From Escherichia coli (lineage in GTDB: Bacteria; Pseudomonadota; Gammaproteobacteria; Enterobacterales; Enterobacteriaceae): DNA of 64,000 nt. The stretch lies in assembly GCF_003334405.1 (NCBI RefSeq), contig NZ_QOWM01000017.1; one strand, given 5' to 3'. Positions 20,981-21,017 of this stretch are shown here, one piece after another (within the stretch, counting starts at the first letter, position 1; every line of letters begins with the position of its first letter). The notes below the pieces were generated by a model that made no database searches, had not been told where the DNA came from, and was given only the letters and a program-made list of their open reading frames with translations. The position numbers and the translations under genes are program-made.

Positions 20981-21017
20981 TTCACATAAATTAACATTGT
21001 GTGTTATTTTATGTGAA
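20981..21017. promoter_or_regulatory. Inverted repeat TTCACATAAA-N17-TTTATGTGAA in the divergent ygbJ/ygbI control region (candidate operator)
   Basis: Perfect 10-bp arms read directly from the sequence, ~50 bp upstream of ygbI and ~80 bp upstream of the ygbJ start; binding protein not established. Confidence 0.35.

Follow-up and report, generated by a model that had tools for sequence, protein, structure and literature searches.

The inverted repeat that lies between the divergent genes ygbI and ygbJ of Escherichia coli is probably the upstream half of a multi-part operator for the repressor YgbI, fused to a class II activator site for CRP at the promoter of ygbJKLMN, a four-carbon acid-sugar operon. 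Occupancy of this region by YgbI and by CRP was known before; the definition of the operator and of its architecture is new. The DNA analyzed was a 64-kb stretch of E. coli sequence (the window), which differs from MG1655 at one base (20967) over positions 20880-21110. Window positions (w) map to the MG1655 chromosome as w = 2882329 - NC_000913.3 coordinate. The elements of the control region, in the order of their window coordinates, are the following.

19991-20899, minus strand: ygbJ (ltnD), the first gene of the repressed operon.
20910-20924, plus strand: box 1a, TGTTAATTTAAGTGA, 11 bp upstream of the ygbJ start codon and at +13 to +27 of the predicted transcript.
20930-20944, plus strand: box 1b, TGTTTGATATTGTGA, weak in E. 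coli (9.8 bits) with both pentamers conserved, at -7 to +7 of the predicted ygbJ promoter.
20944-20949, minus strand: predicted ygbJ -10 hexamer, TATATT, in which 13 genera share T(-12), A(-11), and T(-7) without exception (alignment columns A48, T52, and A53).
20971-20986: CRP site, GGTGAtctgatTCACA, centered at 20978.5, with the first five bases of box 2 as its right half-site.
20981-21017: the palindrome (left arm 20981-20996, center 20997-21001, right arm 21002-21017), proposed as the main YgbI operator and made of two inverted 15-bp boxes.
20982-20996, minus strand: box 2, the left arm, TGTTAATTTATGTGA on the minus strand, kept in 14 of 14 operon-linked genera.
21002-21016, plus strand: box 3, the right arm, TGTTATTTTATGTGA, present only in six Escherichia/Salmonella-like genera.
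21017-21048 (+/-2 bp): the published YgbI ChIP-exo peak, which adjoins the right arm and covers -57 to -26 of the ygbI promoter.
21061-21074, plus strand: ygbI promoter, with the -10 element TAGAAT at 21061-21066 and a mapped start at about 21074, 21 nt before the TTG (Mendoza-Vargas 2009, PMC2760140).
21095-21862, plus strand: ygbI, encoding the DeoR-family repressor of 255 aa from a TTG start.
21500-21516, minus strand: candidate auxiliary intragenic operator, a 17-nt invariant run, TGCACAATTATTCACAC, with the box-like reading TGTGAATAATTGTGC.

The starting point was a preliminary description of a perfect 10-bp inverted repeat, TTCACATAAA-N17-TTTATGTGAA, at 20981-21017 in the divergent promoter region of ygbJ and ygbI. 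Both the sequence and the location are as claimed, with ygbJ leading away on the minus strand and ygbI on the plus strand from TTG 21095, and the true extent of the repeat is larger. A repeat finder delimits arms of 16 nt, TTCACATAAATTAACA and TGTTATTTTATGTGAA, which are complementary at 15 of 16 positions and flank a 5-nt center, ttgtg. Inverted repeats with 16-nt arms, at most one mismatch, and a gap of at most 20 occur once in the 64-kb window, at this very palindrome, and in none of 20 dinucleotide-preserving shuffles. Perfect inverted repeats with 10-nt arms are less exceptional, since 14 were observed in the window versus about 2 per shuffle. The perfect 10-bp symmetry is restricted to K-12-like lineages among the E. 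coli alleles and E. albertii compared: the left arm is TTCACAAAAA in E. albertii and in four divergent E. coli alleles (N56, JA0265, M16807, and S65EC), and all four of the divergent alleles examined read TTCACAAAAATTAACA. Polymorphisms among the E. coli alleles examined are confined to the AT spacers and the center, with none in the pentamers described below. In one E. coli strain, KFu019, a mobile element has taken the place of the DNA left of about 20968, on the ygbJ side and up to the CRP site; it codes for a protein with a transposase domain, an HTH protein, and a regulator of the MerR family. The palindrome and ygbI are intact in this strain, and the ygbJ promoter is split off from both.

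Each arm of the palindrome is a copy of a 15-bp box, TGTTAWTTTATGTGA (TGTTAWTTTAWGTGA; TGTTAWTTTWTGTGA), which consists of two TGTKA pentamers spaced 10 bp. Allowing at most two mismatches, the 15-mer has three matches in 64 kb where 0.21 would be expected, and all three fall inside 107 bp; in a scan with the corresponding position weight matrix (PWM), 3 of 127,972 positions reach at least 14 bits. The E. coli control region thus holds three strong copies and one weak one. The palindrome amounts to four pentamers in 10-bp register, two per direction (TCACA at 20982, TAACA at 20992, TGTTA at 21002, and TGTGA at 21012), and the ygbJ-proximal cluster to four in direct register (TGTTA at 20910, AGTGA at 20920, TGTTT at 20930, and TGTGA at 20940). 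The actual unit is a multi-box operator of eight phased pentamers across both clusters and not the 10-bp repeat as first described. Within the window, no box of at least 12 bits is found upstream of ygbL, ygbM, or ygbN, so these genes are probably co-transcribed or under indirect control.

In part, the PWM looks like a CRP half-site flanked by AT-rich DNA, and two side matches illustrate this. The matrix scores 16.4 bits in the idnD-idnK intergenic region (positions 660-674 of our locus L018), a match that we rejected as a YgbI box, as it is really the flank of a CRP-type TGTGA-N6-TCACG sequence and lies outside the mutagenized window of the Reg-Seq study discussed below. Within the window itself, a CRP-like site, TGTGAAACCGGTCACC, with its AT-rich flank at 42954-42979 reaches 12.1 bits, which again shows that the PWM overlaps in part with a CRP half-site and flank. 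This site sits in the divergent intergenic region between open reading frames 41348-42805 (minus strand) and 42999-44075 (plus strand), which is probably the ascF/ascG region.

The regulator that we assign to these boxes is encoded next to them. YgbI scores 484 bits against the NCBIfam YgbI equivalog NF040890 (cut-off 400), RefSeq names the product "DNA-binding transcriptional repressor YgbI," and this DeoR-type regulator gene is adjacent to and divergent from its target, the ygbJ operon. A mechanical list of open reading frames starts ygbI at ATG 21065 (265 aa). The mapped transcription start at about 21074 falls downstream of that ATG; the true start is TTG 21095, with GGAGG before it, in agreement with current RefSeq and with the argument of Mendoza-Vargas 2009 (PMC2760140).

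The left arm of the palindrome also contributes to a CRP site, whose core is GGTGA (20971-20975)-N6-TCACA (20982-20986), the TCACA being the first pentamer of the arm. A Footprint-seq preprint (2026, PMC12871828) listed taTGTGAatcagaTCACCata, between ygbI and ygbJ, as a novel CRP site bound in vitro with an inferred Kd of 8.4 nM, and the reverse complement of this sequence is window 20968-20988. The site matches TGTGA-N6-TCACA at 9 of 10 positions; such matches number three in the window versus 1.9 expected, so the sequence alone is without significance. The arms themselves had been likened to half of a CRP-like core with unusual spacing, a comparison that does not hold, as CRP uses GGTGA and the left-arm TCACA at the normal N6 and the right arm plays no part. 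Both CRP half-sites are conserved in most of 13 aligned genera, the N6 between them is variable, and no indels occur between the CRP site and the conserved ygbJ -10 element.

That -10 element reads TATATT in E. coli and TACATT in the other genera, and it predicts a ygbJ transcription start at about 20937. The predicted promoter has a good -10 element and no recognizable -35 element. The CRP center lies 29 bp from the first base of the -10 hexamer and would be at -41.5 if ygbJ starts at 20937, a class II geometry that is conditional on this predicted start. On the same scale, the palindrome spans -45 to -79 and boxes 1a and 1b together span -7 to +27, so that the two boxes cover the predicted -10 element, start site, and leader, while box 2 overlaps the CRP site. 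We found no experimental ygbJ start site and no ygbJ expression measurements in crp mutants in the searchable literature, and no RNAP or sigma-70 ChIP-exo coordinates for this region in the supplement text of Gao 2021. Within ygbJ, an exact intragenic FliA (sigma-28) motif, TAAGGATCTTGGTCTGGTTGCCGATACA, which Fitzgerald 2014 reported upstream of ygbK, lies at 20138-20165 on the minus strand.

To place these elements in an evolutionary context, we compared divergent ygbI-ygbJ/K regions from 14 operon-linked genera (YgbI identity 60-96%), gathered by YgbI protein search and genomic-context look-up. Regions were drawn from E. albertii, Entomohabitans, Salmonella, and three further enterobacterial assemblies (78%, 73%, and 70% YgbI identity), together with Citrobacter portucalensis, Serratia, Yersinia massiliensis, Pectobacterium, Dickeya, Pantoea, and Erwinia; a Yersinia pseudotuberculosis locus with ygbI and without the operon was compared in addition. 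The divergent arrangement is retained in the 14 genera, and scanning the orthologous intergenic regions with the E. coli consensus gave 3 to 5 matches each versus 0.06 to 0.5 expected. In all operon-linked genera, box 1 lies at +11 to +19 and box 2 at +83 to +92 from the ygbJ/ygbK start codon, always 72 to 73 bp apart, an invariant spacing that suggests cooperative binding. When whole loci of 3.8 to 6.8 kb were scanned, matches of at least 14 bits were limited to the box positions in 12 of 13, the exception being Y. massiliensis. Box 1, the left arm, the -10 element, and GGTGA-N6-TCACA hold both sequence and spacing across the 14 genera. The invariant columns of the 13-genus alignment are the four direct pentamers, the T/A/T of the -10 element on the ygbJ strand, the G of GGTGA, and TCACA...T.ACA of the left arm. 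Pentamers are 88 to 100% identical in this alignment, whereas the spacers between them are 45 to 80% identical; in box 2, TCACA is 100% and TAACA 97% identical.

The right arm has a different history. Phylogenetic footprinting of the arms, which the preliminary description had suggested as a check, bears out the left arm, kept in 14 of 14 genera, and shows the right arm to be clade specific: box 3 occurs in the six genera nearest E. coli (YgbI identity of at least 73%) and 8 of the 14 lack it. The system can therefore do without the palindrome as such. In Serratia, Yersinia, Pectobacterium, Dickeya, and C. portucalensis, a third box is located just after the ygbI -10 element; in Pantoea and Erwinia, the third box is a direct repeat 29 to 30 bp beyond box 2; and the 70%-identity assembly has no third box of at least 11 bits. 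We propose that the palindrome was created in the Escherichia/Salmonella-like clade, when the third box left the ygbI -10 region for a position beside box 2. Where the palindrome exists, its dyad symmetry is kept: 89% of arm positions are complementary versus 32 to 60% in slid controls (8 sequences), and 5 of 16 arm positions are altered on both arms, a number reached by 0 of 500 shuffles. The 73%-identity assembly has a perfect but different palindrome, CTCACAAATATTCAC...GTGAATATTTGTGAG.

Several single loci deserve mention in their own right. In Y. massiliensis, a second pair of boxes (23.9 and 19.8 bits, 73-bp spacing; L010 3485-3572) lies between ygbI and an MFS transporter gene (3661). 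In the direction of the MFS gene, this stretch repeats the complete ygbK-side module in mirror image (its pentamers, -10-like element, CRP-like site, and box 2), which suggests regulon expansion through promoter duplication. In Y. pseudotuberculosis (L015, about 2355-2460), ygbI has no adjacent ygbJ/K operon and a box stands directly after a TATAAT -10 element; upstream, a remnant resembling the complement of the ygbJ Shine-Dalgarno sequence plus box 1 (CTCTCCAATGTTAATTTTGGTGA) is kept, and the locus gives the impression that the operon was deleted and ygbI stayed behind as an autoregulated orphan. Finally, contig RKCM01000024.1, labeled "MAG: Oscillospiraceae bacterium," has a YgbI with 100% identity to that of E. 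coli; mis-binning of, or contamination by, E. coli DNA is almost certainly the explanation.

A different account of the palindrome takes it to be mainly sigma-70 promoter DNA, in which the outer TTCACA sequences serve as -35 hexamers and conservation derives from RNA polymerase recognition. This account, which we consider unlikely, pairs TTCACA-18-TATTTT toward ygbI and TTCACA-16-GTTAAT toward ygbJ, and exactly these two hexamer pairs were given by Shimada 2014 (PMC3946193) for an RNAP-holoenzyme genomic-SELEX peak between ygbI and ygbJ. A promoter scan likewise finds TTCACA-18-TATTTT on the plus strand, with 9 of 12 matches and an upstream TG, and the left edge of the ChIP-exo peak is where a start of this promoter, near 21017, would fall. 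However, ygbI has its mapped start at 21074, with TAGAAT as the -10 element, and not at the position of about 21017 that such a promoter requires. The eight genera without the right arm cannot have these promoters, yet the CRP site, the TATATT/TACATT -10 element, box 1, and the left arm are all conserved in them. Nor does a promoter role account for box copies three and four, which lie downstream of the ygbJ -10 element. Promoter and operator roles are not mutually exclusive.

Published data place YgbI in this region. In the whole genome, Gao et al. 2021 (PMC8464067) detected just one YgbI ChIP-exo peak, which falls in the ygbI-ygbJ intergenic region and from which no motif was derived because there is only one YgbI site; in the same study, deletion of ygbI derepressed ygbJKLMN and permitted growth on L-tartrate. 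Laboratory-evolution ygbI mutants also overexpress ygbI (PMC6452873), which indicates autoregulation. Our full-text search found no published YgbI operator sequence, motif, or regulog, in keeping with the preliminary description, whose author was aware of no defined operator. The ChIP-exo coordinates are those of NC_000913.2 (peak at 2859304-2859334), and we calibrated the offset from version.2 to version.3 on the FliA motif inside ygbJ (.2 center 2860201; window 20138-20165), obtaining 1977 +/- 1; the FlhDC genomic-SELEX table was left out of the calibration since its ygbJ coordinate is inconsistent with the position of the listed sequence. Converted in this way, the peak touches the right arm without overlap, and its center is 33 bp from that of the palindrome. 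The earlier suggestion of a YgbI operator or a composite CRP/regulator site is favored insofar as the arms are recurring 15-bp boxes conserved with ygbI and TCACA is common to the in vitro CRP site, and it is not matched by the called peak, which adjoins the palindrome.

Taken at face value, this conversion, which puts the ChIP-exo peak outside the palindrome, would mean that YgbI binds 21017-21048, over the ygbI -35 region, and that another factor occupies the palindrome and the boxes. We judge this to be rather improbable. The interval is without any repeat or box (the PWM scores -9.5 bits at best) and is unconserved already between E. coli and Salmonella, while the boxes go with ygbI in every genus examined, including the operon-less Y. 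pseudotuberculosis locus. Moreover, a 31-bp interval called by one peak-caller is not a footprint. We attribute the displacement to an offset in peak calling or cross-linking, given that the conserved repeated motif directly adjoins the peak; that YgbI binds the palindrome at the nucleotide level is an inference.

Other reports of YgbI binding touch on sequences elsewhere. An EPEC paper that names a "YgbI box" at dgcZ saw no effect of YgbI there and did not give the sequence of the box. Cross-validation against Reg-Seq did not succeed, as the YgbI-pulled fragments at idnK (-48 to -27; L018 750-771) and leuABCD (-18 to +1) are without a box. YgbI is present at 2 to 6 copies per cell, and given this abundance, its pull-down on idnK and leuABCD may reflect looser AT-rich binding.

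It is very unlikely that the boxes are sites of a global regulator instead of YgbI, be it ArcA binding to direct repeats, H-NS on AT-rich DNA, or CRP at extra half-sites. The direct-repeat box of ArcA does resemble the 15-bp box, with phosphorylated ArcA recognizing TGTTA-type repeats at an 11-bp center-to-center distance. The ArcA consensus, GTTAATTAAATGTTA, has no match with up to three mismatches in 20900-21100, and the repeats here are 10 bp apart versus 11 bp for ArcA, a spacing of 10 bp that the pentamers keep strictly in every genus. A dicC promoter probe with many TGTTA/TAACA sequences enriched both ArcA and YgbI (PMC12132413), and H-NS was flagged in the ygbI-ygbJ spacer by Shimada 2014 (PMC3946193). 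The dicC promoter has no PWM match of at least 8 bits, and its wealth of TGTTA/TAACA is only weakly compatible with the YgbI box. For ArcA, we found no data on this locus in the searchable literature, and H-NS cannot explain invariant pentamers at fixed positions beside variable AT-rich spacers. That the palindrome acts as a hairpin or cruciform, an RNA element, or a terminator is hardly credible: its single-stranded DNA folds at -10.9 kcal/mol (z = -5.3) and changes on both arms preserve complementarity, but it lies upstream of both start sites (mapped at 21074, predicted at about 20937) and hence in neither mRNA, its stem is AT-rich and no terminator-like sites were found, Rfam gives no match at E up to 1, and the non-pairing copies, boxes 1a and 1b, are equally conserved.

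The reading of the boxes as YgbI sites extends, more tentatively, into ygbI itself. Across five genera, TGCACAATTATTCACAC is the sole invariant run of at least 11 nt in ygbI, in which otherwise 15% of synonymous third positions are invariant. It occupies +406 to +422 of the coding sequence, in the codons for CTIIHT, and its minus strand (21500-21516) reads the box-like TGTGAATAATTGTGC at 13.5 bits. On this comparative evidence, the run suggests a putative auxiliary intragenic operator. Its distribution matches that of the right arm precisely, with presence in all six genera that carry the arm and absence from the eight that do not, a co-occurrence within a single clade that counts as one evolutionary event. 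A possible, if speculative, interpretation is that the clade was rewired: the shift of box 3 together with a new operator in ygbI (+427 to +441 of the transcript) would form an autoregulatory loop of about 510 bp around the ygbI promoter, and DNA binding would have frozen the synonymous codons of CTIIHT. Such a loop would be like those of lac O2 or the internal operators of glpD, which the candidate ygbI intragenic site recalls.

The architecture has counterparts in well-studied repressors. DeoR and GlpR of E. coli have in common with YgbI a DeoR-type winged helix-turn-helix joined to a DeoRC domain, a position beside the target operon, and several operator copies over the promoter. The half-sites of DeoR (TGTTAGAA) and GlpR (TGTTCGAT) begin with TGTT, as does the YgbI box. 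CRP co-regulation as at deo and glp is a further likeness, and cooperative or looped binding by an oligomer is likely here as well. The YgbI box is nevertheless distinct, being a direct TGTKA repeat at 10 bp with boxes set head-to-head around a 5-bp center, in contrast to the abutting 16-bp palindrome of DeoR, and YgbI falls far below the family cut-offs of DeoR and GlpR (91 and 117 to 165 bits versus 244 to 331). Its best non-self NCBIfam family is AgaR, at 167 bits and below the AgaR cut-off of 260. AgaR likewise represses a divergently transcribed sugar operon, which has multiple AgaR sites and depends on CRP, and its site is a TTTC-rich repeat unrelated to TGTTAWTTTATGTGA. Class II CRP promoters under a specific repressor, of the galP1 or CytR/CRP type, likewise combine CRP at -41.5 (here relative to the predicted ygbJ start), a good -10 element, and no -35 element, and in them, as in the arrangement proposed here, the operator of the pathway-specific repressor has bases in common with the CRP site. 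In Brucella, the DeoR-type regulator VdtR represses the ltnD/otnK cluster for erythronate and threonate, which encodes a DUF1537 kinase, and binds several sub-fragments of the ltnD promoter; it was not released in vitro by free L-threonate or D-erythronate (PMC10580937). VdtR is a functional analogue of YgbI from a different lineage, a likeness by function, as that study gave no VdtR motif for sequence comparison.

In the mechanism that we propose, the recognition unit would be a TGTKA pentamer every 10 bp, and YgbI, assembled into tetramers or larger oligomers like other repressors of the DeoR family, would occupy both clusters. Repression of ygbJ would then take two forms: YgbI would compete with CRP for the common TCACA at -45, and it would cover the -10 element, the start site, and the early transcribed region. 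The identical binding may also repress ygbI, accounting for autoregulation. By analogy with the family, induction would come from a pathway intermediate, probably a phosphorylated one, whose binding to the C-terminal DeoRC domain would release YgbI, whereupon cAMP-CRP at -41.5 would recruit RNA polymerase to a ygbJ promoter that has no -35 element.

The control element is most likely of the ordinary sugar-acid operon type, a DeoR-family multi-site operator with a CRP site, and it challenges no principle of bacterial gene regulation. YgbI was validated as a transcription factor only recently and has a single genomic target. For such a regulator, the comparative footprint supplies a testable operator, TGTKA pentamers in 10-bp phase, along with a predicted class II CRP-dependent ygbJ promoter, and it pictures catabolite control and pathway-specific repression as meeting on five common base pairs. 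The operator definition may be of use in annotating the L-threonate/erythronate regulon (ltnD-otnK-otnC-otnI) across Enterobacterales and in engineering the tartrate-utilization phenotype of ygbI mutants.
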